This document shows, piece after piece, positions 8,644 to 60,618 of a stretch of 64,000 nucleotides of DNA. A program made the position numbers and the translations under genes. This DNA comes from a virus (taxonomy: Duplodnaviria > Heunggongvirae > Uroviricota > Caudoviricetes): the IMG/VR virus record IMGVR_UViG_3300045988_003495; one strand, written 5' to 3'. The notes below the pieces were generated by a model. The model ran no database searches. It had not been told where the DNA came from and worked only from the letters and a program-made list of their open reading frames with translations. Every line of letters begins with the position of its first letter. Within the stretch, counting starts at the first letter, position 1.

Positions 8644-9195
8644 TCAACTTAGTTTTGCAAACTCTCCGTGGAGTTTTATCGCAGCTTCACAGTAAGCTTT
8701 ATGGGCTTCTTCAGGTGTGTCAAACATACCAAGATGATAGTTTTTACCTTGTAAACGTATCATTGCTCGAAACCTTTTACTTATCTTCTGTACACCTTTT
8801 GGCAACCCAGATGGGGACTCTCTTGACCGATTGCAAGAGTTTTGTGAAGCTGTACAAACCCTTAAATTCAAGTACCTATTGTCCCAACCGTCCCCATTCT
8901 TATGGTCAACCTGTAAGGTTTTATCAGGTAGATATCCATCCATATACAAGATAACTAAACGATTTGCTTGGTAGCCCCTTCCATCAATCAGCAACTGAAC
9001 TGACTTGTGTCCATCAGTATTTGTTCTGTAGTTTCCAGCCCTCTTACCTCCAAATCTAGAGTTAAAGTTTGCATTACCTTCTCTAAACTTCCAAGTAAAG
9101 ACCCCTGTTTCGGGGTCGTAGTCCAATAGCTCCTTAAGACGAATTTCTGTAATCATTTCAACACCATCAATGTACTTCCAACCAGCTCTTACCAA
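8644..9195 (-). CDS. HNH homing endonuclease with AP2-type DNA-binding domain
   Basis: N-terminal YDPETGVFTWK, HNH core QVDHKNGDGWDNRYLNLRVCTASQN, C-terminal AP2-like GMFDTPEEAHKAY; paralogous to 18759..19250 and 32481..32972. Confidence 0.75.
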   Translation of the reverse strand: MVRAGWKYIDGVEMITEIRLKELLDYDPETGVFTWKFREGNANFNSRFGGKRAGNYRTNTDGHKSVQLLIDGRGYQANRLVILYMDGYLPDKTLQVDHKNGDGWDNRYLNLRVCTASQNSCNRSRESPSGLPKGVQKISKRFRAMIRLQGKNYHLGMFDTPEEAHKAYCEAAIKLHGEFAKLS

Positions 9196-11896
9196 CCTTA
9201 CCTGTGCCAGTTACAAGCGTCTCACTCTTCAAACCTAAATTCTTAGATGCCTGACCATACATCCAGTCAGTTATGGCTTTAACTTCTTGAGTCATACTTT
9301 CTGGACATTCCCAACTGTTTTCATCGTGGTATGCCAGCAAAAGCCTAGCACCAATTGCTGGTTTTCGTCCATTTAATTTTGTCAACCCTTCTTCACATGC
9401 TCTTCTACAAGCAAGGTTAATTGCCTCATTTTGAATCTGAGCCTCTGAACCCATCAAAAGATAGTTCAATAATTTGTGTGGAGATTTACACCACAACCAA
9501 GCTCCAGCAACCTTTACAAAACCCCCTTTAGAGATTGCAGCAGTCTTACCAAATACCTCTTCAAGTGCCTTTTTAGTTGCTTTGTAGTCAGCTTCCAAGT
9601 CATCTAACAGCTTCTTAATTTTAGGCAAACGGATAAAGTAAGTCTGTTTAGTCAGCGCACCCTCCTGAGTAGTTGCAGCCTTAATCGTCTTAGCAAACTT
9701 CTCATCACCTGCACCGAACAGCAGTGCATAGATACCATTCTTAGCTTTCTTACGACCTTTGCTAATCTCATGAAGAAGATTCTCATCCTGAGTAGCTCGA
9801 CAAGTCAAGATGTCCTGCTCATCGTTCAAGCTAAAGTAAATACTGTTCAGTGTATGTGCATCAGTCCCTGAATAGACAACGTACAGGTCATTCTCAGAGT
9901 CATAACGAAGGTACTTATCAATCTCTGGGTTGAGGTACTCATCAAAGTGTTTGCAGTAATAGCGTCCATCTTCTTGACGAATAAACTCAATCTCTTCTTT
10001 ACCTTGCGTTACCGCTTTGGTGAAGTCTTTGTCACCCATAAAGTTACAAAGGAGAACTAGCTGGGCTGAGTTCATGTCTACAGAGACAACGTTAGTACCT
10101 TCTTCACAAATCCACACTGCCCTCATTGGTTCCCCATAGACAGCAGCACCAGACGGTACGTTTACAATACCATATTGTGTCATACGACCAGTTGAAGTAC
10201 CAAACACCGTTGCACCAGCACTAAGGCGACCGTCAGGACGAATCTGGTTCAACCAACCTTTTTCATCATCCTTTGAGTTCTCAATAGTTCTGCGTCTGTG
10301 CATCAAAGTGTAGTATTTCGCAATCTTCTGTCCAAGCTCACCTTCAATCGTATCATAGGATGATTCGGTAAGTTTTGGTGAAGTACGGATTAAGCAAGGC
10401 TCAAGCAAATCTGTGTATTTCTTCACAGACCAGTTATGCTCAATGTACTGGACACCTTCATGCTCAACATAACTCAAACCACACCGCTCAACCATTTCCT
10501 GCCACTTAGGATGCTTTGTAATCATCTTTTTGTTGTCTTTGAAACGACAAACTTTGACAGGGCGACCATCTGAGTCTTTCTTGTAGTTCCAGTCATCTGG
10601 AATCCAACCAACTGATTTCAAGTAGTCTTTAACAACTGCTACCTGAGTCATACGAGAAACTTCAAACTCAATTGGTGTATACGGTGCATCAATCAAACCT
10701 GTGTAGCGACTTGACTCAAGTTCAAAGTGGTTAACAACGTGACTGTTATAGTACTTCACAGTTTTGACTGTTTTTACTGGCTTCCAGTCTTTGCATTTCT
10801 TACCAATCTTTGCATTCAACTCATTGCAAATTGCACGAGCATCCTTCATTGCTACAAAACCCTCCTTGTACTCTTCACCAGTTACAGAGTTGGTTGGTGT
10901 ATAGCAATTTCTCTTTTCAATGTTAAAAATCTTTGTAGTTGGCTTACCAAATGGTTTGATTTCGTATGTCTGCATCTCACCATTACGTACCTGCTGACGG
11001 TACTTTGTCTTAGGGTACTTGGTAATTCTCTTCAGTCCATCTGCATGACCAAATGTTTCAACATACTCATTCCAAGCTTTTGCAAACTCTTCTCCAGTCA
11101 CTTTACCTTTGGTCTTAATAGTTGGAGGTAGATGTGGTTCAACCTCTGAAGCAAGCTCATTAGTCAACTTGTCAAGTTCCTTTACATGGAACTCCATAAG
11201 CTCCTTATCAGCTTTCCAACCATTGATAGCTTGTTGACTCATCCAGAAAGATGTTTCTTTAGCTCGCATATAGGTTTCATAAGTATCTATGCCACACTTC
11301 TTAAGCTTGAGATACTCATTATCAAGTGCCCGTTTAGTTTTGGCGTTAATACGGATATCTTCTACAACACGAGTGAAGATTTCTGCATTCCACACACCCC
11401 AATGTTCAATCTCTGGTTTACGGACACCAACACGAGCACCCCATGCAGCCAAACCATGAGCACCTTTATAACCCTTTGGGGTTGGCCTATCCATCCACTG
11501 AACACGAGACTGGATAAGAGAATCCTGAAAGAAATTACTCCACGGCTTACATTTTGGATTATCAAAGTTCCATAAATCAGGCGCAATGTGATTGAAAACC
11601 CACCAGTCATAGCCGAGACCATTATGGATGCAAAGACGTTTTGCCTTTAACGCAAATTCAACACCTTCACGTAAGCCGCCCTTGATGTACTTAGTGTACT
11701 TGTGACCGAGGATAGGCTCATCTGTAAAGACCCATACAGGTGGCTCTTCATCGTCAGATTTATAGTCTGCAAAAGCCATTACGTGAACTTTAGTGAACTC
11801 AAGGAGTAAACCATCAGTTTCTGTATCACCAACCAAATGTAAGTTTTTAAAATCTACGTTTTCCATTTTTACTCCCTCTAAAATCATTAACCTCAT
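9167..11896 (-). CDS. DNA polymerase, family A, with N-terminal exonuclease region
   Basis: 909 aa; motif A VSVDMNSAQLVLL, motif B RKKAKNGIYALLFGAG, motif C LLAYHDENSWE all contiguous in one ORF. Confidence 0.9.
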   Translation of the reverse strand: MRLMILEGVKMENVDFKNLHLVGDTETDGLLLEFTKVHVMAFADYKSDDEEPPVWVFTDEPILGHKYTKYIKGGLREGVEFALKAKRLCIHNGLGYDWWVFNHIAPDLWNFDNPKCKPWSNFFQDSLIQSRVQWMDRPTPKGYKGAHGLAAWGARVGVRKPEIEHWGVWNAEIFTRVVEDIRINAKTKRALDNEYLKLKKCGIDTYETYMRAKETSFWMSQQAINGWKADKELMEFHVKELDKLTNELASEVEPHLPPTIKTKGKVTGEEFAKAWNEYVETFGHADGLKRITKYPKTKYRQQVRNGEMQTYEIKPFGKPTTKIFNIEKRNCYTPTNSVTGEEYKEGFVAMKDARAICNELNAKIGKKCKDWKPVKTVKTVKYYNSHVVNHFELESSRYTGLIDAPYTPIEFEVSRMTQVAVVKDYLKSVGWIPDDWNYKKDSDGRPVKVCRFKDNKKMITKHPKWQEMVERCGLSYVEHEGVQYIEHNWSVKKYTDLLEPCLIRTSPKLTESSYDTIEGELGQKIAKYYTLMHRRRTIENSKDDEKGWLNQIRPDGRLSAGATVFGTSTGRMTQYGIVNVPSGAAVYGEPMRAVWICEEGTNVVSVDMNSAQLVLLCNFMGDKDFTKAVTQGKEEIEFIRQEDGRYYCKHFDEYLNPEIDKYLRYDSENDLYVVYSGTDAHTLNSIYFSLNDEQDILTCRATQDENLLHEISKGRKKAKNGIYALLFGAGDEKFAKTIKAATTQEGALTKQTYFIRLPKIKKLLDDLEADYKATKKALEEVFGKTAAISKGGFVKVAGAWLWCKSPHKLLNYLLMGSEAQIQNEAINLACRRACEEGLTKLNGRKPAIGARLLLAYHDENSWECPESMTQEVKAITDWMYGQASKNLGLKSETLVTGTGKVGKSWLEVH

Positions 11897-12123
11897 ACAT
11901 TACTGCAAAAAATTATAAAAAGCAAGTTGACAATGCACTTGACAAGGTGTTAATCTTTGCGAAGTGGGTTTTTACTTAAAAGGTTACTTAACAGTTTAAC
12001 TATACAGATACTTTAAAACTCTTAAAAGATTATTTAATAGCTTTTAAAAAGCTTTAAAGTATAACGTATAGAATACGTTAAGATAAAAGATTAAAACTTA
12101 ATAGTTACTTAAAAGAGGCTTAC

Positions 12124-12546
12124 ATGCAGAAAATGTTTGTTCACCCAGACATAGCTGACTTTGTTAGAGCTTTGCAGAAGTTGGAAGAACTTGACATTGC
12201 TGCTCAGCGGGAATATGCTCACCATCACAGGAGAATGGTTGATATACAACATGAAATAGAGTTGTCTGAAAACTATGAAGATGACTTAAAATGCTCTGTA
12301 TTTGAGCATATGAAAGATGTTGCTACAGCGAGACGTAAAGCTAAAGACACAGTTGCTTTACTAGATTCTCTTAAAAAGAGGTTGCAAAGTGGTACAGACC
12401 TGTGTAATCTAGCGTCACTGATTAACGATGTTGAAACTTCTTGGGATAGGCACTATTATCCACGTTCTGAAAAGACACTTGACTTTTCTTCATCCGAAAA
12501 CTTAAAATGTTCTAGAAAGAAACTTAACCAACTGAGAGAGAAATAA
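12124..12546 (+). CDS. hypothetical protein
   Basis: 140-aa ORF, first gene of plus-strand block divergent from DNA polymerase. Confidence 0.5.
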   Translation: MQKMFVHPDIADFVRALQKLEELDIAAQREYAHHHRRMVDIQHEIELSENYEDDLKCSVFEHMKDVATARRKAKDTVALLDSLKKRLQSGTDLCNLASLINDVETSWDRHYYPRSEKTLDFSSSENLKCSRKKLNQLREK

Positions 12547-12547
12547 T

Positions 12548-13348
12548 ATGAATATCGATGTAGAAAAGATGCTTGAAGAGAAAGGTGTTGATGAAGCATT
12601 CTTAATCAATGCCGTAGAAAGCATGGCTATGATTCTTCGTGGTAATAACTACACAGAACAGTTTATGCCTGCAAGCTATAACTTGCCTGAAGACAAGTCT
12701 GATAACGGTGCTTTTGCAGAACAGGTTAATATGATGTTGACAGACACTACACTTGCTCTGGCATCTATTGCGGTTGGTGTTGATGCACTTGCTGAGTTCA
12801 TTTTTTATGAAATGCAAAAGAATGACTATATCAGGATGTCAGACGAAGATAAGGAACTGTTGCTGACTAAGGACACTGATTTCATTATTGATACACTTAT
12901 CTCATCAACGAGTGCTGTTATGGCTGTTCTTGAGAAGCGTATGGAAGAGAAACTTTCACGATATGAAAAACTTGATTGGGGCGTAGAAGAATTAAACCCA
13001 CGAATCAAAGAGATTATCCAGCAAACTAAAGAGTCTTTGGAAGAAGCTGTTGAAAATGACTCTGTAGCTGACATTGAACCACTTCAGGTGAAAGTTGCAC
13101 TGATGATTCCAGCTATCTCTACGATGATGAATATCGTTGCACTAATCCAACTGTCACAGATGATGGGTGTGAGTATTGAGTTCATTGAGGAAATGACTGG
13201 TGGCGTTAGTATGCAAGCAATCAATGATGTTTTGGTGAACATTGGTGCTTCAATCATTGAAGAGAAACTACGCATTAACTTCGGTGATGATTTTGTGAAG
13301 CAAATCTCAGCTATGGCTGAAAAAGAGTCTGCTGAGCAACTGCACTAA
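12548..13348 (+). CDS. hypothetical protein
   Basis: 266-aa ORF, start coupled to upstream stop. Confidence 0.5.
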   Translation: MNIDVEKMLEEKGVDEAFLINAVESMAMILRGNNYTEQFMPASYNLPEDKSDNGAFAEQVNMMLTDTTLALASIAVGVDALAEFIFYEMQKNDYIRMSDEDKELLLTKDTDFIIDTLISSTSAVMAVLEKRMEEKLSRYEKLDWGVEELNPRIKEIIQQTKESLEEAVENDSVADIEPLQVKVALMIPAISTMMNIVALIQLSQMMGVSIEFIEEMTGGVSMQAINDVLVNIGASIIEEKLRINFGDDFVKQISAMAEKESAEQLH

Positions 13349-13365
13349 GTCTTTATAAATCTTAC

Positions 13366-13390
13366 AAGCCTCCTTAGTTGGGGGCTTTTT
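13366..13390 (+). terminator. rho-independent terminator
   Basis: agcctcc / gggggct hairpin followed by ttttt. Confidence 0.5.
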
Positions 13391-13409
13391 AGTAATTAAG
13401 GGAGATAAA

Positions 13410-14153
13410 ATGAGTAATATTATCGCATTTACTGGAAAGGCACGTTCTGGAAAAGACACCTCATGTTCTATTGTGAAGAACATCTTAGAGGATGAGTATG
13501 GCTACAATGTTGCTGTAATGGCCTTTGCAGACAACCTTAAACTATCTGCATCAAAGATATTTGACTTGACTTGGAATGACCTGTACGGTGAAACTAAAGA
13601 GACTCCACAGGTTTTTGACTTATCATACTCTGAACTGATGTTTAAAGTTACGGAAGCTATGGAGTTCACCTTCAGAGATGAACGTTACCATATGGACTTC
13701 AAGCTTATGTCAGAGTTAACCGGACGATTAATCATGGAGCTTAAGAAGGTTGCTAAACCGACTCTATTGACACGTCTGGGGTTTAGTAAAAAGTATAAAT
13801 TCTCATCAAGACAAATTCAACAGGTTTGGGGTACTGAAGTTGTCCGTAAAGTAATGGGCGACAAGTTCTGGTCTAAAGACCTTGAAAAACGAATGGTAAA
13901 TTTCTTTGACGTTTGCTCACTTAGAAATCAAGAAGGTGTTGTCTTAATCAGTGATTTAAGATTTGACTCTGAAGCTGAATGGCTGAGTAGGTTTGCACAC
14001 CAAACTATTGAAGTAAAAAGAGACAATGTGGACAAAGTTTCATCACATGTTTCAGAAAATGGCATTTCTACAAAATATGAGCGTGACATTATCCATAATA
14101 ATGGTACTCTTGAAGACCTTGAGAGCAAGCTAAGAGCTATCCTGAAGATTTAA
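13410..14153 (+). CDS. deoxynucleoside monophosphate kinase
   Basis: P-loop FTGKARSGKDT near N-terminus, as in T4 gp1-type dNMP kinases. Confidence 0.6.
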   Translation: MSNIIAFTGKARSGKDTSCSIVKNILEDEYGYNVAVMAFADNLKLSASKIFDLTWNDLYGETKETPQVFDLSYSELMFKVTEAMEFTFRDERYHMDFKLMSELTGRLIMELKKVAKPTLLTRLGFSKKYKFSSRQIQQVWGTEVVRKVMGDKFWSKDLEKRMVNFFDVCSLRNQEGVVLISDLRFDSEAEWLSRFAHQTIEVKRDNVDKVSSHVSENGISTKYERDIIHNNGTLEDLESKLRAILKI

Positions 14154-14161
14154 AAGAGAGA

Positions 14162-14362
14162 ATGAAGATGAGAGTAAAAGACAATTTTAAAGTTATTGAC
14201 CACCGTTTAGTGGAACTCTCATCTCTTTCCAATGAGGTAATGATTGAACGTCTGAAGAGAGTTGAATCACGAAGGAAAGAGATTGCAGATGAAATTCATG
14301 AACTGGACAAGATTGAAAATGGATTGAAGGCAGAACTACAACGAAGAGGTGCTAATGTCTAA
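14162..14362 (+). CDS. hypothetical protein
   Basis: 66-aa coiled-coil ORF. Confidence 0.4.
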   Translation: MKMRVKDNFKVIDHRLVELSSLSNEVMIERLKRVESRRKEIADEIHELDKIENGLKAELQRRGANV

Positions 14363-16340
14363 AGGTCGTAAATTGAAAGAGGCTGGTCAGTTTATTGGTC
14401 ATTGTGCATGTCCACGTTGTGGTTCATCAGATGCTGGTTCAATCTATCATCATGACGATGATTCTTATTCGATGACTTGCTTTAGTTGTAACAAAGGTTT
14501 CCCAGAGTGGGATTTTGATAAAGGACAAATCGTGAGCACTTATTCTACTGGTTCAGACAATAAAAACCGTACTTTCCGTGGAATGGATTTAGACGATGTA
14601 AAAGAAAACCTAGAAGCAATGGACTTGAAAGATAGGAAGATTCCTGCAAAAGTTCTTGAGCGTTTAGGTATCAAGGTTGACATCGACAGTGATGGTGAAA
14701 TTGACGCACATTTCTACCCAACTTACAAACGTAATGAAGATGGCAAGCTAGAACATGTTGGCTACCGTGTTCGTCACCGTTATCCCGAAGACCATCCAAA
14801 AGAACATCTACGAGGTAAGCTAAAAGACTTCTCAGGTGGTGTTGGAGACATTAAAGGTGAACTGGCAATGTTCGGTTCATGGATTGCTCCAGAAGGTGGT
14901 AACCGTCTATTCATCTGGGAAGGTGAGATGGAATGTGCGACAGCAATCTATATGACTTCTCTTGCGATTAAGGACAAGTCTCGTCGTAAGAATTACTGTC
15001 ACGTATCTGTCCCATCAGGTGCAAACATTAAGTCTATCAAAGACAACTATCAGTACATCACATCATTTGATGAGATTTACTTGTGCTTTGATAATGATGA
15101 AGCAGGTGCTAAAGCCACTAAAGAGGCTGCTGGCATTCTCCCTATCGAGAAGGTTCGTTTATTCCAGTATCCAGAGGGTGTGAAAGACCTTAACGAGTGG
15201 TGGACAAAGTTCTATAAAGAGAAAGACACAGTTCTGGAAGGATTTAAGCAGCGTATCTACAACGCACCTCGTTACTGCCCTGCTGGTATCAAGAACTTTG
15301 CAGACGGTTTTGAGGCAATGAAGAATCGTGGTCAGATTCCATTGATTCCTTTCCCAGAATCTTTCGGGGATTTGAACAGACTGACCTATGGTGGTTACGG
15401 TTTAGGTGAGATTACAACTCTGGCAGCACCATCCTCAGTAGGTAAATCAGCTTACACCCGTGAAATGATTTACACTGCTTGGAAAGAAACTGATTATAAT
15501 ATTGGTGTAATCCCTGTAGAAGATACCTATGAAGAGTTGATGGAGATGCTCTGTGCAATCCACCTGAGCAAGCAGATTTCTGAGATTCCTTATGACGAAC
15601 GTGATTGGGATGAATTGAAGGAAGCACACGCAGAGCTATCTAAAGGTCGTCGTATCCACATCGTAGACCATCAAGGGGCAATTGACCAAGATAACTTGCT
15701 GGAGTTTGTTGACTATCTTGTTAATAGTTTAGACTGTAAGATTATTATTCTTGACCCTATTACGTTGGCTCTGTCACGTTCAGATACGGATGAAGAGGAA
15801 GTTTTGTCTGAGCTATTGCGTCGTTGCAAACGCTACCAGTATGCACAAGTGAACGTCTGTCACGTTCGTAAGAGTGCAGGTGGTCAGAAGGCTAACTCTG
15901 AAGGTGGGGATATCTCTGAAGAGGATATTAAAGGCTCTGGTGCGTATTTCCAGATTTCTATGAACAACATTCTGTTAATGCGTAACAAGGTTGACCCAGA
16001 CCCTGTTAAGAAAAACTTGACAAAAATCAAGCTAACTAAATGTCGTCGTCACGGTAAGTCAACGGGTATTGCTGGTCATACTTGGTACAATCCAGATACA
16101 GGACGCCTCATTAAAGCATCTGGTTGTGGAGTTGACATTGATGGTGCAGCAGAAAATATTCGCCAACAGTTTGGTATTGGTGAAGCTGAAGACCATTACG
16201 ATGATTCTTTGCCACATTATGAGGATGAAGTGTTTGACCGTGAGACTGGTGAAGTCTATACTGAAGAGCAGTGTCAAAGCTCAACGATTCCACCTGTATT
16301 AAGTGAGGATGCAGATGACTGCCCATTCGAAACTGAGTGA
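14349..16340 (+). CDS. DNA primase-helicase (T7 gp4-like)
   Basis: 663 aa; zinc-binding CACPRCGSS...CFSCNKGF, TOPRIM-like WEGEMECA...FDNDEAG, helicase Walker A AAPSSVGKSAYT, Walker B KIIILDPIT. Confidence 0.85.
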   Translation: MLMSKGRKLKEAGQFIGHCACPRCGSSDAGSIYHHDDDSYSMTCFSCNKGFPEWDFDKGQIVSTYSTGSDNKNRTFRGMDLDDVKENLEAMDLKDRKIPAKVLERLGIKVDIDSDGEIDAHFYPTYKRNEDGKLEHVGYRVRHRYPEDHPKEHLRGKLKDFSGGVGDIKGELAMFGSWIAPEGGNRLFIWEGEMECATAIYMTSLAIKDKSRRKNYCHVSVPSGANIKSIKDNYQYITSFDEIYLCFDNDEAGAKATKEAAGILPIEKVRLFQYPEGVKDLNEWWTKFYKEKDTVLEGFKQRIYNAPRYCPAGIKNFADGFEAMKNRGQIPLIPFPESFGDLNRLTYGGYGLGEITTLAAPSSVGKSAYTREMIYTAWKETDYNIGVIPVEDTYEELMEMLCAIHLSKQISEIPYDERDWDELKEAHAELSKGRRIHIVDHQGAIDQDNLLEFVDYLVNSLDCKIIILDPITLALSRSDTDEEEVLSELLRRCKRYQYAQVNVCHVRKSAGGQKANSEGGDISEEDIKGSGAYFQISMNNILLMRNKVDPDPVKKNLTKIKLTKCRRHGKSTGIAGHTWYNPDTGRLIKASGCGVDIDGAAENIRQQFGIGEAEDHYDDSLPHYEDEVFDRETGEVYTEEQCQSSTIPPVLSEDADDCPFETE

Positions 16341-49162: not shown

Positions 49163-49199
49163 TCGACGCAGCGGGGCTAAATAGCCCCAGATACCTCAA

Positions 49200-49228
49200 C
49201 AGCCCCTATTTAAAGGGGCTTTTTTACG
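49200..49228 (+). terminator. rho-independent terminator ending the small-gene array
   Basis: agcccct-attta-aggggct followed by tttttt; preceded by a second hairpin ggggcta-aa-tagcccc. Confidence 0.65.
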
Positions 49229-49570
49229 TCTATTGAATCCTTATACAATCCCTTTCCTTTCCTTTCCAGAATCTTACTAGACCTTAAAAGCAATAACTCT
49301 ATAGTCTACTCTATAACCTCTTATCAAATCAACTTAAATATAAGCCCATAACCCGAAAGGGAAGGGCAACCGTTTAAACGCTCTATAAAGCTCTATAACA
49401 GCCTTATCAACCTAACTTAAGGGATTGCATTAACTCACCCTTAAAAGCCCTTTATAAAGCTTCTCAGAGACTTAAAAGAATCTTATAAGGGTGTAAGCTT
49501 TATCGTCTCGTTAGTTATCTTGTGAATATCTAAAAAGGGCTTGTTAGTGTCTTAAAAGTATGTTATAGGG

Positions 49571-49636
49571 GCTATAAAGTTACGTAAAAGAGGCTATAAA
49601 GTTACGTAAAAGAGGCTATAAAGTTACGTAAATACT
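49571..49636. repeat. 22-bp tandem direct repeat, three copies
   Basis: gctataaagttacgtaaaagag x2 then gctataaagttacgtaaatact. Confidence 0.85.
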
Positions 49637-49689
49637 AGCCCCCTTAACATTCTCTTAACAATTTCTTAACAATCCCTACATAGTTATGC

Positions 49690-50230
49690 TTTTAAGGCAC
49701 TTGTTAGCAACTTGTTAGCCCCTTGTTAAATCTCTGTTAAGACCACGTAAAAGCCTTGTAAGAGTCTTTGACATAGCCTTAAAAGCTCCTGTAAAGCCCT
49801 ATAAAGAGCTATCTGTACAGTTGGGGTGTAACTACTAGGAAGAGACTTAAAAGGGGCTATACAGAGCTATAGAGAGCTTTTAAGAGGTATGTTTAAGGAA
49901 TCACTAAGAAAGGAAAGGGAACGATAAGAAAAGAGATAGTGACCATGTTAATAGCTTGTTAAAAAGATTAAACACTTGTTAGAGACTTGTTAATTATCTT
50001 AACAAAATAACTCTTAAAAATTAACTTGTTAGCTCTTGTTAGTCATCTGTTAAGAGACTATAAAGACCATGTATCGACTGTTAAGAACTTGTTACAACCT
50101 TGTTAGTTCTGTTAAGAGTCTGTTAAGACCTCTGAAGAGATGTTAAGAAGGTGTAAGGACTGTTAAGAGATTGTTAAGGATATTTTAAAATTTTGCAAAG
50201 TACTTGTAAGGGAGCTGTTAAGGGCTACCA
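49690..50230. repeat. dense iteron array of short motif YTGTTARG with about 10-11 bp periodicity
   Basis: more than 20 copies, e.g. cttgttag, ctgttaag, cttgttaa between 49690-49745 and 49935-50225; no ORF of 60 aa or more on either strand. Confidence 0.8.
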
Positions 50231-50369
50231 AGCAGATATACACCCTAATCAGATATTTTTCAGTTCCTTCAAAGACCCTAAAAAATGACTTGACAGTCTT
50301 ATTTTATAAAAATTTTAAAATTCTGAATAATTACCTAGACAGTCTTTTAAAAATACAGGTAGAAACAGG

Positions 50370-50700
50370 CTTATAAGATACCTTGTTAATACCGTGTTAG
50401 ACCTTGTGAGATAAGGTCTGTAAAGATATTCCTGTTAAGTTTGTTAAAACAGTCTATATAGAGGCTTAGTAACACCTAGTGAACACCTATAGAGAGTGTC
50501 ATAGCTTACATAGAGATTAAGAGGTGTATAGGAGCTTCTAAGAGTGTGTAGAGAGATGGTTAAGATGATTGTATAGGTTGTTTAGAAGGCTTGTTAGAAG
50601 AGTGTTTAGATGGCTATTTAGAAGGGCTATACAGAGGGCTATTAAGACCACTAGATAGTTACTAAGATACTATATAGTACTATATAACTATATAGAGAGT
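50370..50700. repeat. second iteron block (GTTAG/TTTAGAAGG motifs) ending in AT-rich tatatag repeats
   Basis: cttgttaataccgtgttag..., gtttagaagg/cttgttagaag/gtgtttagatgg/ctatttagaagg, then tactatatagtactatataactatatag. Confidence 0.6.
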
Positions 50701-50828
50701 AAGATTAAGAAGATTGTTAAGAAGGATAGATATTTTATTCACATATGATGGTGACCCAGAGGTTGGGACAACCGATAAAATTTTATAAAAATTAAAAAGC
50801 CCCCAATTAAGGAGGCTCTTAAGATATT

Positions 50829-51452
50829 TTAAATCAGTGTTTCCAGAACTGTTTTCAATGATGACTTAGTTGTCTGGTAAAAATGAGTGAACCCATTATT
50901 GTTATCGAATATCTGCATCATGATATCATCTCCCTTGATTGGGTACACTCGGATATCATAGTGAAACCCATTAAAGACAGCAGAACCATTACAGAACACA
51001 CTAAAGTCAGCCACTGAGATATACTCTTCATGTCCTGTGATTTTTATACAAACACCTTTACTCGGTCTCTTAGGGTTGATATCTTCCATCACAGACATAC
51101 TCTGTCCACCAAGAGATATCATAGTGACCACTTTACGGTTCTTCTGTTTAAAGTACATCTTAACTTTCTGCAAAGTGTCTTCATAGAACGGATAAGACTT
51201 CTCTACAAATATTCCTTCAAGTGGCTCTTTACCATTTTCAACTTCTCTGGTATGTCGTACTGCAAAGATAATTTGTTGGAACCAGTCAAGATTTTCTTCG
51301 GAGAGTGCTTCTCGAACATCACTCCAGTCAAGGACTAGGTAGTTACCTTCAACATCTTTTAAGTTATCTTTTTCCATATCTATCACACCATTATCGTAAA
51401 ACTTGATATTCTGGTACTGCGAATTTATTACTATTGTTCTTGATGAGGTCAT
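50829..51452 (-). CDS. hypothetical protein
   Basis: 207-aa ORF, last gene of minus-strand block converging on the iteron region. Confidence 0.45.
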   Translation of the reverse strand: MTSSRTIVINSQYQNIKFYDNGVIDMEKDNLKDVEGNYLVLDWSDVREALSEENLDWFQQIIFAVRHTREVENGKEPLEGIFVEKSYPFYEDTLQKVKMYFKQKNRKVVTMISLGGQSMSVMEDINPKRPSKGVCIKITGHEEYISVADFSVFCNGSAVFNGFHYDIRVYPIKGDDIMMQIFDNNNGFTHFYQTTKSSLKTVLETLI

Positions 51453-59202: not shown

Positions 59203-60618
59203 ATGAGCGAATTATTTAAACATGCGCACCTTCATGCAGGTCGAACTGAAAATGGTGCTGTAAACCATACTTCATCAATGTCTGCTCTTGTAGACTTTTA
59301 CAAAGCTGCTGGTTCAAGCCGTAGCAATGTAGAAATCTTACCAGACCTGTTCTACAAAGCTTTGCGTGAGGATGTTGATGTTGCAGTCCGTATTTTACTG
59401 CATATGCGAGATGTACGAGAAGGTATGGGTGAGCGTAAAGCCTTCAGAACTGTTTTGCTTCAAGCAATTGAAGACAAAGTTTTAGAGCCTACACAGGTTC
59501 TTCGCATTATGGATAAGATTGCAGAGCTTGGTCGCTTTGATGACTTCAAAATCTTTGTAGGTACTCGTTTCGAGACAGATGCCTTCAAACATTTAGAAGC
59601 AGCATTACTAGACCCTGCAACAGCAGGTTTAGCAGCTAAGTGGTTACCACGAGTCAAACCACGTCATAAGCAGTTTGTAAAACGTTTCTGCAAGTTTGCC
59701 AACTTGAGTGAGAAAGAGTACCGCACACTGTTGTCTGCACTATCTGATACAGTTGAGCAAAAAATCTCTGCTAATGAGTTTGGTAAGATTGACTACAGCA
59801 AGATTCCTTCACTTGCTGCTGCACGTTACCAAAAACTGTTTAACCGTAAGGATGGAGAACGCTACAAAGCTTACATTGAGTCTTTATCAAAGGGCGAGGC
59901 TAAGATTAATGCTGGTGCTGTTTACCCATACGATGTGATTAAATCTGTCAAGCATGGTAATGCAGATGTTGCCAATGAGCAGTGGAAAGCACTACCAAAC
60001 TGGATGGCAGAAGGTGAGAACATCTTGTGTATGACTGATGTTTCAGGCTCAATGTCTTGGGTGAATCTTGGTTCAATCACTGCCCTTGATATTGGTGTAT
60101 CACTTGCCTTGTATGTAGCAGAACGTAATACAGGTTGCTTTAAGGATGAGTTAATGGTTTATTCAACAAACCCTTACTTCATCGAACTGAGTGGTGATTT
60201 ACGAAACCGCCATCGTCAGGTGATGCGACATGTTGAATATGGCTCAACTAACCTACAAGCAGCTTTTGACCGCATTCTTGAGGTAGGTAAGAGAAACAAC
60301 TTGACTCAGAAAGATATGCCAAGTAAGCTTATCATCTTCTCCGATATGGAGTTCAATCAGGTTGATGGAGCTAACGGTCGTACAAACTTTGAAGCAATTC
60401 AGAGTAAGTACAAAAAAGCTGGATACGAGATGCCACAACTGGTATTCTGGTACTTAGCAAACCGTAATGGTACTTGCGAAGTGTCTGTTAAGGATAACGG
60501 TGTAGCGATGGTATCTGGTTTCTCTCCAGCCACTTTAAAAGCTCTGATTGGTGGTGAGAAGTTTGACCCAATCAGCGTAATGCTCAAAGCAGTAATGATT
60601 GACCGTTATATCTGGTAA
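59203..60618 (+). CDS. vWA-domain protein with helical N-terminal domain; candidate Ro60-like (TROVE/DUF2828-type) RNA-binding protein
   Basis: 471 aa; MIDAS-type motif ILCMTDVSGSMSW (DxSxS) with downstream Thr and Asp; helical N-terminal half; sits directly upstream of Y-RNA-like elements in the tRNA cluster. Confidence 0.5.
   Translation: MSELFKHAHLHAGRTENGAVNHTSSMSALVDFYKAAGSSRSNVEILPDLFYKALREDVDVAVRILLHMRDVREGMGERKAFRTVLLQAIEDKVLEPTQVLRIMDKIAELGRFDDFKIFVGTRFETDAFKHLEAALLDPATAGLAAKWLPRVKPRHKQFVKRFCKFANLSEKEYRTLLSALSDTVEQKISANEFGKIDYSKIPSLAAARYQKLFNRKDGERYKAYIESLSKGEAKINAGAVYPYDVIKSVKHGNADVANEQWKALPNWMAEGENILCMTDVSGSMSWVNLGSITALDIGVSLALYVAERNTGCFKDELMVYSTNPYFIELSGDLRNRHRQVMRHVEYGSTNLQAAFDRILEVGKRNNLTQKDMPSKLIIFSDMEFNQVDGANGRTNFEAIQSKYKKAGYEMPQLVFWYLANRNGTCEVSVKDNGVAMVSGFSPATLKALIGGEKFDPISVMLKAVMIDRYIW

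Follow-up and report, generated by a model that had tools for sequence, protein, structure and literature searches.

The gene-free stretch of 1.6 kb at positions 49163-50828 of the analyzed DNA, a sequence of 64 kb (hereafter, the window), is most probably a concatemer junction, i.e., the site of both ends of the linear chromosome in a Felix O1-like phage; taken as a whole, this packaging and terminus reading is one that we hold with good confidence. Sequence comparison identifies the central 592 bp (49638-50229) as homologous to the direct terminal repeat (DTR) that has been mapped in close relatives. The terminus feature is essentially known, having already been mapped in these relatives, with no new kind of element involved. 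Its internal anatomy, which comprises phased TGTTAAG iterons, inverted boundary modules and an invariant 13-mer, is absent from the Felixounavirus papers and records that were examined, and a full-text literature search found no description of TGTTAAG arrays in Felix O1-like repeats. A preliminary description of this region had offered it as a candidate replication origin or a packaging or partition site, and had noted that arrays of short repeats occur at phage genome termini. The homology to a mapped DTR bears out the packaging and terminus proposal; nothing was found in favor of a partition site, and the phage is strictly lytic.

Identity and conservation of the region

The source phage of the window is a Felixounavirus (a Felix O1-like myovirus). 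Matches to the region were found in 257 phage records, nearly all from Felixounavirus or other Ounavirinae, and 202 of these cover at least 80% of its length. The gene-free region is better conserved than both neighboring genes, retaining 80-82% identity to Mooglevirus while the two flanking genes retain only 64-71%. In the Erwinia phage Roscha1, the TGTTAA arrays are kept (26 copies vs 3.8 expected) while the rest of its DNA no longer aligns. The genome termini fall in mid-window because the assembly was opened away from the physical ends. The region, the repeat and its edges are listed below.

49163-50828, no strand: whole non-coding, putative concatemer-junction region, between convergent gene blocks (no conserved ORF, no Rfam family)
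49638-50229, no strand: DTR equivalent of 592 bp, assigned by homology to relatives; single copy in the concatemer, at both ends in virion DNA
49636-49649, no strand: left DTR boundary module TAGCCCCCTTAACA, the inverted counterpart of right-boundary TGTTAAGGGCTA
50216-50242, no strand: right DTR boundary block, with TGTTAAGGGCTACC and AAGCAGATATACA on the two sides of the boundary; an invariant block at the mapped boundary and candidate terminase recognition and cleavage site

Probable terminal repeat and its boundaries

The ends of the source phage were placed via relatives that are 88-95% identical to it in the repeat. The homologous segment is an exact 592-bp repeat at both record ends of ECP2307 and is exactly repeated, at 613 bp, at both record ends of SPJ41; in each case, the ends map to 49638 and 50229. 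GE_vB_7A carries a 583-bp segment at both record ends (copies 99.5% identical) that maps to 49644 and 50227, the 618-bp feature annotated as 'DTR' in the UAB_69 record maps to window positions 49636-50231, and the Roscha1 record starts at the equivalent of 49639. Altogether, the left boundary lies at 49636-49644 in five independent records and the right boundary at 50227-50231 in four; the boundaries are fixed and non-permuted, and those from all relatives coincide within 0-6 nt on the window. The segment is present in one copy within the window, as is expected of a collapsed assembly or if a second copy lies outside the window.

Published work on related phages provides further information on these ends. 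A 608-bp DTR was shown in UAB_Phi87 by Bal31 digestion and run-off sequencing, and the TerL of this phage falls in a Felix O1-like DTR cluster (Bardina et al., PMC4837284). PhageTerm analyses gave a DTR of 613 bp in Ro111lw (PMC6454146) and short DTRs in Kolesnikvirus. In the original genome paper on Felix O1, short terminal repeats were deduced from PFGE without being located, and a paper on Georgian Salmonella phages mentions DTRs for T5-like phages only (PMC7764154). Two repeat_region features in phage nataliec were also examined as DTR marks and were rejected, as they do not mark DTR boundaries.

The two boundary blocks are the most conserved elements of the region. The right boundary, between 50229 and 50230, is the middle of a 27-nt block that is the longest invariant one in the region (11 phages, two genera). 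The 13-mer AAGCAGATATACA, which is unique within the window, directly abuts the DTR in ECP2307, SPJ41 and GE_vB_7A, and exactly one copy was present in all 15 loci where it was found, which belong to Felixounavirus, Mooglevirus, Suspvirus and Kolesnikvirus. The left module TAGCCCCCTTAACA also occurs once in the window. Relative to the GGG(GG)CTA module, the cuts at the two edges lack mirror symmetry (an offset of approximately 4 nt), with record ends possibly off by 1-6 nt. Homology to the mapped relatives shows where the predicted boundaries lie, and it shows strong purifying selection on the boundary blocks and the iteron cores.

Iteron arrays and helical phase

Four groups of iterons were identified in the repeat and its right flank, as follows.

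49644-49672, minus strand: three inverted iterons (CTTAACA) with 11-bp spacing, just inside the left boundary
49702-49740, plus strand: four direct iterons, CTTGTTAG / CTTGTTAA / CTGTTAAG, with 11-bp spacing
49946-50221, plus strand: main array, in helical phase, of fifteen direct TGTTAR iterons, with a single inverted copy at 49999
50384-50447: four further iterons in the right flank

The four-copy and fifteen-copy groups correspond to the two blocks recognized in the preliminary description, which had missed the inverted group and the right-flank group. The TGTTAR core occurs 30 times in the region (26 on the plus strand and 4 on the minus strand), with 23 copies inside the DTR and 7 outside, at densities of 15.6 (plus) and 2.4 (minus) per kb vs 0.80 and 0.85 per kb outside the region. 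The best 600-bp interval in the region held 22 copies, compared to 4 elsewhere in the window. The earlier count of more than 20 copies of YTGTTARG is therefore true of the core and not of the strict 8-mer, which has 13 matches in the region. For the whole window, there are 30 matches to this 8-mer vs 14.6 +/- 3.6 expected, a number reached in none of 100 shuffles.

Nearest-neighbor spacings of TGTTAR were 9, 10, 11, 20, 22, 31 and 44. Fourier analysis gave peaks at 11.0 bp in the left flank, 11.25 bp in the DTR and 11.75 bp in the right flank; those of the left flank and DTR exceeded all 200 of 200 control segments of the same length, in a comparison that covered the 10-11.25 bp band and has the right-flank peak outside it. 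Long-range phase of the plus-strand copies was best at 10.2-10.3 bp (R = 0.83, p about 0.001-0.0015). These results support the earlier proposal that the iterons, spaced by about 10-11 bp, lie on one face of the helix.

Within the DTR, iteron-core positions are 97.2% conserved vs 82.6% for non-core positions (Mann-Whitney p = 1e-14). Indels among relatives measure 11, 22, 44, 55, 110 and 121 nt, i.e., multiples of 11 bp, and phage Si3 has two additional 11-bp units at the equivalent of the inverted-iteron block (49644-49672).

Flanks and terminators

The sequences on both sides of the repeat are also rich in repeats and are closed by terminators, with the following layout.

49201-49220, plus strand: intrinsic terminator at the end of the plus-strand gene block (terminator scan; annotated at the homologous place in ASO1A)
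49229-49637, no strand: left flank, unique sequence adjoining the right physical end, with 11-bp periodic composition and CTTAAAAG / CTCTATAA motifs (Fourier, motif map)
49570-49632, plus strand: three exact 22-bp tandem units, GGCTATAAAGTTACGTAAAAGA, each with the palindrome TTACGTAA (TRF)
50230-50794, no strand: right flank, unique sequence adjoining the left physical end, with iterons, the TTTAGAAGGCTA array and TACTATATAG repeats
50293-50332, no strand: most AT-rich tract of the region, 12% GC, with the 18-nt invariant block TATTTTATAAAAATTTTA
50581-50647: TTTAGAAGG array, i.e., the TTTAGAAGGCTA array, period 12, 5.5 copies
50668-50696: TATATAG tract (TACTATATAG repeats), 17% GC
50795-50820, minus strand: intrinsic terminator at the end of the minus-strand gene block (terminator scan; annotated in ASO1A and wV8)

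The left terminator, the TTTAGAAGG-type repeats, the AT-rich TATATAG tract and the end of minus-strand genes on the right (gene end at 50829, with the terminator-like hairpin at 50820-50795) had all been pointed out before and were found again, yet the most AT-rich spot is the tract at 50293-50332. The tandem array in the left flank (TRF period 22, 2.9 copies, 100% match) ends 6 nt before the DTR boundary, and TTACGTAA(A) occurs in the window only at 49580, 49602 and 49624. None of the 11 aligned phages has more than two substitutions in the unit nearest the boundary. The TTTAGAAGG array shows 12-13-nt indels among relatives. The left flank has a local GC skew of -0.24 to -0.30, and the right flank an opposite one of up to +0.44. 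Sigma-70-like promoters were not enriched in a scan (10 vs 7.4 +/- 2.6 in shuffles).

Proposed function and alternative explanations

The region is best read as a T7-like site at which DNA is packaged and termini are generated, a reading that is likely in our judgement and in which the short, evenly spaced repeats are most likely candidate protein-binding sites for the cutting and packaging of DNA. The 592-bp DTR, short, exact and non-permuted, would occur as a single copy in each unit of the replicating concatemer and, after duplication, at both packaged ends. The approximately 25 helically phased TGTTAAG iterons in the repeat would be bound by a DNA-binding protein of the phage, for which the recognition subunit of the terminase or one of its partners is the most plausible candidate. 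This protein would cover one face of the DNA and bring the terminase nuclease to both boundary modules. An outward-pointing iteron and then GGG(GG)CTA would make up each boundary, and the same complex could nick opposite strands at the two edges. The repeat would be duplicated by strand-displacement synthesis during packaging, as proposed for T7, and the repeat-rich flanks probably hold auxiliary packaging or end-processing signals. No terminase gene was found among the large ORFs of the window (Pfam, no TerL) or in 57.5-64 kb.

The conservation of the cores and the helical phasing argue for a binding protein without saying which, and this protein could be one unrelated to packaging, acting to cap the entering ends sequence-specifically against RecBCD, to control injection, or, as a host nucleoid protein, to silence or bend the junction. 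This explanation is unlikely. In its favor, the arrays, as they lie inside the repeat, would be present at both ends of the injected DNA. T5 has a repeat-rich injection-stop region, but two-step injection of the T5 type is not known in the Felix O1 group. Nothing points to any such protein, and the most conserved elements are the boundary blocks, which fits cleavage and recognition better than capping. Capping finds some encouragement in the felixounavirus Bas63, which lacks a RecBCD inhibitor (PhageMaP preprint).

A combined function is also conceivable, although we regard it as a rather doubtful extension. A dedicated nucleoprotein structure, a 'terminus organiser' conserved in Ounavirinae, could be built on the approximately 25 phased TGTTAAG sites together with the two iteron-GGGCTA modules that face outward. 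A phage protein would polymerise along the entire repeat, set both nick sites (and in this way measure the repeat) and cap the injected ends; the structure might double as a secondary origin. If true, a group of phages that reportedly has no RecBCD inhibitor would possess a telomere-like device.

The origin proposed in the preliminary description would be of the iteron type, with an initiator that binds the phased repeats and melts the neighboring AT-rich tract, either alone or alongside a terminus function. Direct repeats in phase and an AT-rich tract are indeed both present, and the 12%-GC tract with the invariant 18-mer at 50293-50332 is the sole element that could serve as a candidate unwinding element. 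T7 has secondary replication origins close to its genome ends, so termini and origins can adjoin. However, the cumulative GC skew, which had been suggested as a check, reaches its maximum at the region and its minimum at about 12 kb of the window; a divergent gene switch accompanies the minimum at about 12-13 kb, between DNA polymerase A and primase-helicase, whereas genes converge on the terminator-bounded junction considered here. DnaA boxes occur at chance level in the window (92 vs 91.7 expected), with three at or within one mismatch in the region, and the flanking genes carry no initiator signature, having matched no Pfam family and, in PHROGs, only families of unknown function. The cores of 6-8 bp are also short compared to the 17-22-bp iterons of plasmid and lambda-type origins, and they coincide with the mapped terminal repeat, with the AT-rich tract approximately 60 bp outside it. 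An origin is for these reasons improbable here; part of the flanks may have a replication role.

Neutral replication slippage in a dispensable spacer between gene blocks could also leave repeats as by-products, and copy number does differ among relatives by whole 11- or 22-bp units, which is a slippage signature. This explanation is strongly disfavoured and very improbable, given that the region is better conserved than its flanking genes, that cores are 97% and spacers 83% conserved, that Erwinia phages retain the motif although the DNA around it has ceased to align, and that orientation and helical phase are maintained.

The last explanation is that small proteins or a non-coding RNA encoded by the region account for its conservation. 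Small ORFs are annotated across it in UAB_Phi87, UAB_69, Michonne and ESh21, and the single-strand fold of the repeat is better than that of shuffles (z = -4.6 and -5.1 for the two strands). This excess in folding is the same for both strands and is due to the inverted iterons, and thus reflects an inverted repeat at the DNA level and not an RNA. The only ORFs inside 49163-50828 are one of 31 aa and one of 37 aa, in agreement with the ORF-free character noted earlier; no ORF of at least 30 aa is common to all 11 aligned relatives, and wV8 has none. An Rfam scan of the region (E-value up to 1) found no family, and its sole sub-threshold match, Phe_leader (26 bits vs a gathering score of 55), was rejected as the minus-strand terminator hairpin at 50795-50820. 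With stop-codon frequencies of 7-11%, at or above the coding control in all six frames, and with terminators on both sides shielding the region from transcription, a coding or RNA function has a negligible chance of being the explanation.

Significance

Recognition of the junction shows annotators where the genome truly starts and ends, since the termini appear in mid-contig and the GenBank records of several relatives have spurious small ORFs annotated over them. Outside T7 and T3, the recognition, cutting and duplication of short exact terminal repeats are poorly understood. In this respect, the junction of the Felix O1 group is unusually legible, with two invariant boundary blocks, a 13-mer conserved in four genera and arrays under selection for cores, orientation and phase, which makes binding and packaging experiments easy to design. 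The Felix O1 group is also widely used in the biocontrol of Salmonella and E. coli.

Comparison with known systems

The DTR of T7 and T3 is duplicated during packaging from one copy per concatemer unit (PMC10438801), as is proposed here. In both systems, the non-coding junction contains a DTR that is short and exact, and a 7-bp motif recurs at fixed spacing, a dozen times or more, within it and beside it; in T7, this is CCTAAAG at 13-bp spacing, with about 12 copies at 175-340 beside the repeat and 3 inside. In contrast, the T7 repeat measures 160 bp, whereas the arrays here lie mainly inside a repeat four-fold longer and are spaced by 10-11 bp. Here, the genes on both sides are transcribed toward the junction, while T7 has early promoters and phiOL/phiOR there. 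The junction considered here has no phage RNA polymerase pausing mechanism. The likeness is one of architecture only, without sequence homology, and the role of the T7 arrays is itself not established.

In the cosB R-sites of lambda, the pacL/pacR boxes of SPP1 and the pac hexamers of P1, a cleavage site has several short repeats in phase beside it, which are regarded as organising a nucleoprotein complex of the small terminase. Those systems have 3-7 sites and produce cohesive ends or headful series, whereas here the sites number approximately 25-30, the two predicted cleavage positions are separated by about 590 bp and the terminal repeats are exact. Iteron origins (lambda ori, P1 oriR, pSC101, R6K) share helically phased direct repeats near an AT-rich tract; the region differs from them in its much shorter cores, its lack of an adjacent initiator gene, the skew maximum, the convergent terminators and the coincidence with mapped genome ends.

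In SPO1-like and Twort-like myoviruses, long terminal repeats are bracketed by short inverted repeats that are proposed signals for site-specific nicking. The inverted pair TGTTAAGGG(GG)CTA, which points outward at each edge of the repeat, resembles this arrangement, but the repeats of those phages span several kb and contain genes, while the one described here is of 0.6 kb, non-coding and filled with iterons. The closest counterpart is the DTR of Felixounavirus and other Ounavirinae (608 bp in UAB_Phi87, 618 bp in UAB_69, 613 bp in Ro111lw, and the 'short terminal repeats' of Felix O1), which is homologous, with 88-95% identity in the repeat. It occupies the same intergenic place between the same flanking genes, its boundaries agree within 0-6 nt, and it shows no substantive difference from the repeat in the window.

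Identification of the terminal repeat

Database searches matched the gene-free region (49163-50828) to 257 phage records, 202 of which align over 80% or more of its length, with identities of 80-93%. The phages belong to Felixounavirus or are related to it, and infect Escherichia, Salmonella, Shigella and Citrobacter. The window encodes a DNA ligase, DNA polymerase A, a primase-helicase, ribonucleotide reductases and NAMPT, a gene content consistent with a Felix O1-like myovirus. A Felix O1-like junction (89% identity) also lies inside GU169904.1 (135846-136504), a 147-kb record named 'Staphylococcus phage SA1' that is probably chimeric or mislabelled.

In Salmonella phage UAB_69 (OL656108), for which short direct terminal repeats (DTRs) have been stated (PMC11350853), the homologous gene-free stretch contains a 618-bp repeat_region labelled 'DTR' that aligns with window positions 49636-50231. 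In three more records, deposited by different laboratories, a copy of the homologous segment sits at either end:

ECP2307: 592 bp at both record ends, 100% identical; ends equivalent to 49638 and 50229
SPJ41: 613 bp at both record ends, 100% identical; ends equivalent to 49638 and 50229
GE_vB_7A: 583 bp at both record ends, 99.5% identical; ends equivalent to 49644 and 50227

For Erwinia phage Roscha1 (Kolesnikvirus), the first base of the record corresponds to 49639. Direct terminal repeats of 608 bp were mapped in UAB_Phi87 by Bal31 digestion and run-off sequencing, and its terminase was assigned to the Felix O1-like DTR cluster (Bardina et al., PMC4837284). A 613-bp DTR was reported by PhageTerm for the Felix O1-like phage Ro111lw (PMC6454146), Korean Kolesnikviruses were classed as short-DTR phages (PMC11984208), and short terminal repeats of Felix O1 were inferred from PFGE by Whichard et al. 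(PMC3185647).

The suggestion in the preliminary description that the region is a packaging site or genome terminus is thus borne out by its match to the DTR mapped in UAB_69 and UAB_Phi87 and to the both-end repeats of relatives. By homology, these comparisons establish the region as a concatemer junction containing the terminal repeat. The locus belongs to the short exact DTR class and is specifically the DTR already mapped for Felixounavirus. The termini lie within the window because Felix O1-like records are conventionally opened at rIIA (PMC3185647), and genes 'converge' on the junction because each block is transcribed towards one of the two physical ends.

Anatomy of the junction

The region occurs once in the window and, as first described, is free of substantial ORFs (only 31 and 37 aa inside) and lies between convergent gene blocks, with an intrinsic-terminator-like hairpin at each border.

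Features of the region and its borders in concatemer order; iterons are short repeats with the core TGTTAR
ends 49162, plus: gene bordering the region on the left
49201-49220, plus: intrinsic-terminator-like hairpin, left side
49229-49637: left flank, adjoining the right physical end; C-rich on the plus strand, 11-bp periodic, with motifs CTTAAAAG and CTCTATAA
49570-49632: three exact 22-bp units GGCTATAAAGTTACGTAAAAGA, closing the left flank
49636-49649: left boundary module TAGCCCCCTTAACA
49644-49672: three inverted iterons, the first inside the repeat
49702-49740: four direct iterons
between these four and the main array: 200-bp stretch with other motif families
49946-50221: main array of fifteen direct iterons
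within TGTTAAGGGCTACC/AAGCAGATATACA: right boundary
50193-50288, plus: small-ORF site homologous to hypothetical proteins annotated in relatives
50230-50794: right flank, G-rich, with four more iterons, a TTTAGAAGGCTA array and TATATAG repeats
50293-50332: most AT-rich tract of the region (12% GC), in the right flank
50820-50795, minus: intrinsic-terminator-like hairpin, right side
ends 50829, minus: gene bordering the region on the right

A 33-nt copy of the minus-block terminator hairpin (50793-50825), 91% identical and inverted, was observed at 13359-13391, near a divergent region at about 13.4 kb.

At both edges of the repeat, on opposite strands, an iteron is followed by GGG(GG)CTA directed outwards, so that an imperfect inverted pair brackets the repeat. 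Segments 49644-49680 and 50152-50188 are 81% complementary, and for this reason either single strand of the repeat forms a far more stable fold than shuffled sequences do (z = -4.6 and -5.1). Directly outside the left boundary, the perfect palindrome TTACGTAA occurs in three copies at exact 22-bp spacing (49580-49631) and nowhere else in the 64 kb, a pattern suggesting a site for a dimeric protein other than the iteron binder. A limited search of literature and records found no description of the phased iterons, inverted boundary modules, subfamily-wide 13-mer AAGCAGATATACA or TTACGTAA repeats, which is no proof of novelty.

Iteron number and phasing

The more than 20 copies initially reported for YTGTTARG hold for the core TGTTAR (30 in the region, 26 on the plus and 4 on the minus strand) but not for the 8-mer as written, with 13 copies. 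Core density reaches 15.6 (plus) and 2.4 (minus) per kb, compared with values of 0.80 and 0.85 for the remaining 62 kb; the densest 600-bp interval holds 22 copies, compared with at most four anywhere else. Across the window, the 8-mer occurs 30 times versus 14.6 +/- 3.6 in shuffles, exceeding 100 of 100. Unbiased k-mer enrichment recovered CTTGTTA (13 copies, 0.15 expected) and TGTTAAG (11, 0.33 expected), with CTATAAAG and CTTAAAAG as second motif families. Two features noted previously were likewise found, the TTTAGAAGG array at 50581-50647 and a TATATAG tract at 50668-50696.

Adjacent cores lie 9-11 bp apart or at multiples thereof, in agreement with the spacing of about 10-11 bp first proposed. 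Fourier peaks fell at 11.0 bp in the left flank, 11.25 bp in the central part and 11.75 bp in the right flank; the first two were higher than in 200 of 200 control segments, compared over a 10-11.25 bp band outside which the right-flank peak lies. The fifteen main-array copies keep a best phase of 10.3 bp over 270 bp (R = 0.83, p ~0.0015), which places them roughly on one helix face, as had been claimed.

Conservation of the boundaries and iterons

When the region was aligned across 11 phages representing two genera, the longest invariant block (50216-50242, 27 nt) proved to have the mapped right boundary at its centre. The 13-mer AAGCAGATATACA immediately adjoins the repeat in ECP2307, SPJ41 and GE_vB_7A, is unique within the window, and is single-copy in each of the 15 loci where it was found, including Suspvirus mistaenkt and Roscha1. 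Iteron-core positions in the repeat are 97.2% conserved versus 82.6% for the remaining positions (p = 1e-14), although the repeats partly anchor their own alignment. Indels in or near the repeat are overwhelmingly of 11, 22, 44, 55, 110 or 121 nt (12-13 nt in the 12-bp array), indicating that whole units are gained or lost with phase preserved. Identity to Mooglevirus is 80-82% in the region versus 64-71% in the two flanking genes. Altogether, these data and the iteron arrays kept in Roscha1 (described below) demonstrate, at the level of sequence comparison, that boundaries and iterons are under selection.

Alternative readings

The AT-rich right flank might conceivably contain a secondary origin. 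Iterons binding an end-protection or injection-control protein are also possible, but nothing specific supports such a role. The replication origin initially proposed for the region is not supported: cumulative GC skew peaks there, DnaA boxes are no more frequent than by chance, and no function is known for either flanking gene. The skew minimum (about 12-13 kb) coincides with a divergent gene switch at 11897-14349, a better origin candidate than the flagged region, between:

9167-11896, minus: DNA polymerase A
14349-16340, plus: primase-helicase

A second skew turning point lies near 58 kb, before a plus-strand block whose first gene encodes a 471-aa protein carrying the domains DUF2828 and DUF7788 (59203-60618, plus).

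Neutral slippage as the source of the repeats is contradicted by the conservation data. Small ORFs or an ncRNA are likewise contradicted, as ORFs in the terminal repeat are not conserved among relatives and the region matches no Rfam family. Small hypothetical proteins are annotated across the repeat or its boundary in UAB_69, UAB_Phi87, Michonne, ESh21 and HMD-P8; these ORFs, lacking conservation, are most likely over-annotation.

Proposed mechanism and comparison with known systems

At the concatemer junction, the phased iterons would be bound on one DNA face by a phage-encoded DNA-binding protein, for which the recognition subunit of the terminase, or a partner of it, is the most plausible candidate; a search of the window's large ORFs and of 57.5-64 kb turned up no terminase gene. 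The complex could direct the nuclease to both outward-facing modules at the boundaries, opposite strands would be nicked about 590 bp apart, and strand-displacement synthesis would duplicate the repeat with each genome packaged.

The distant Roscha1, with only about 120 nt still alignable to the region, retains both the TGTTAAG iterons and AAGCAGATATACA as a boundary element, which implies a DTR of about 438 bp. Its 2-kb left-end locus contains 26 copies of TGTTAA (3.8 expected), 22 of them in the 873-nt non-coding part (1-873), and the layout is that seen in the window: copies at the left edge are inverted, and the arrays nearer the right edge are direct. Its flank next to the right end (right-end locus, 1431-2000) carries a different phased motif, TCTTCTAAG, in about 15 copies.

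Duplication of the repeat by strand displacement during packaging is the scheme proposed for T7-type phages, whose concatemer units each contain a single copy (PMC10438801). In the T7 sequence, we confirmed 12 copies of the heptamer CCTAAAG, spaced 13 bp apart and situated immediately inward of the left end; three copies lie inside the 160-bp repeat. By analogy, this heptamer array is a parallel, in architecture, to the iteron arrays described here.
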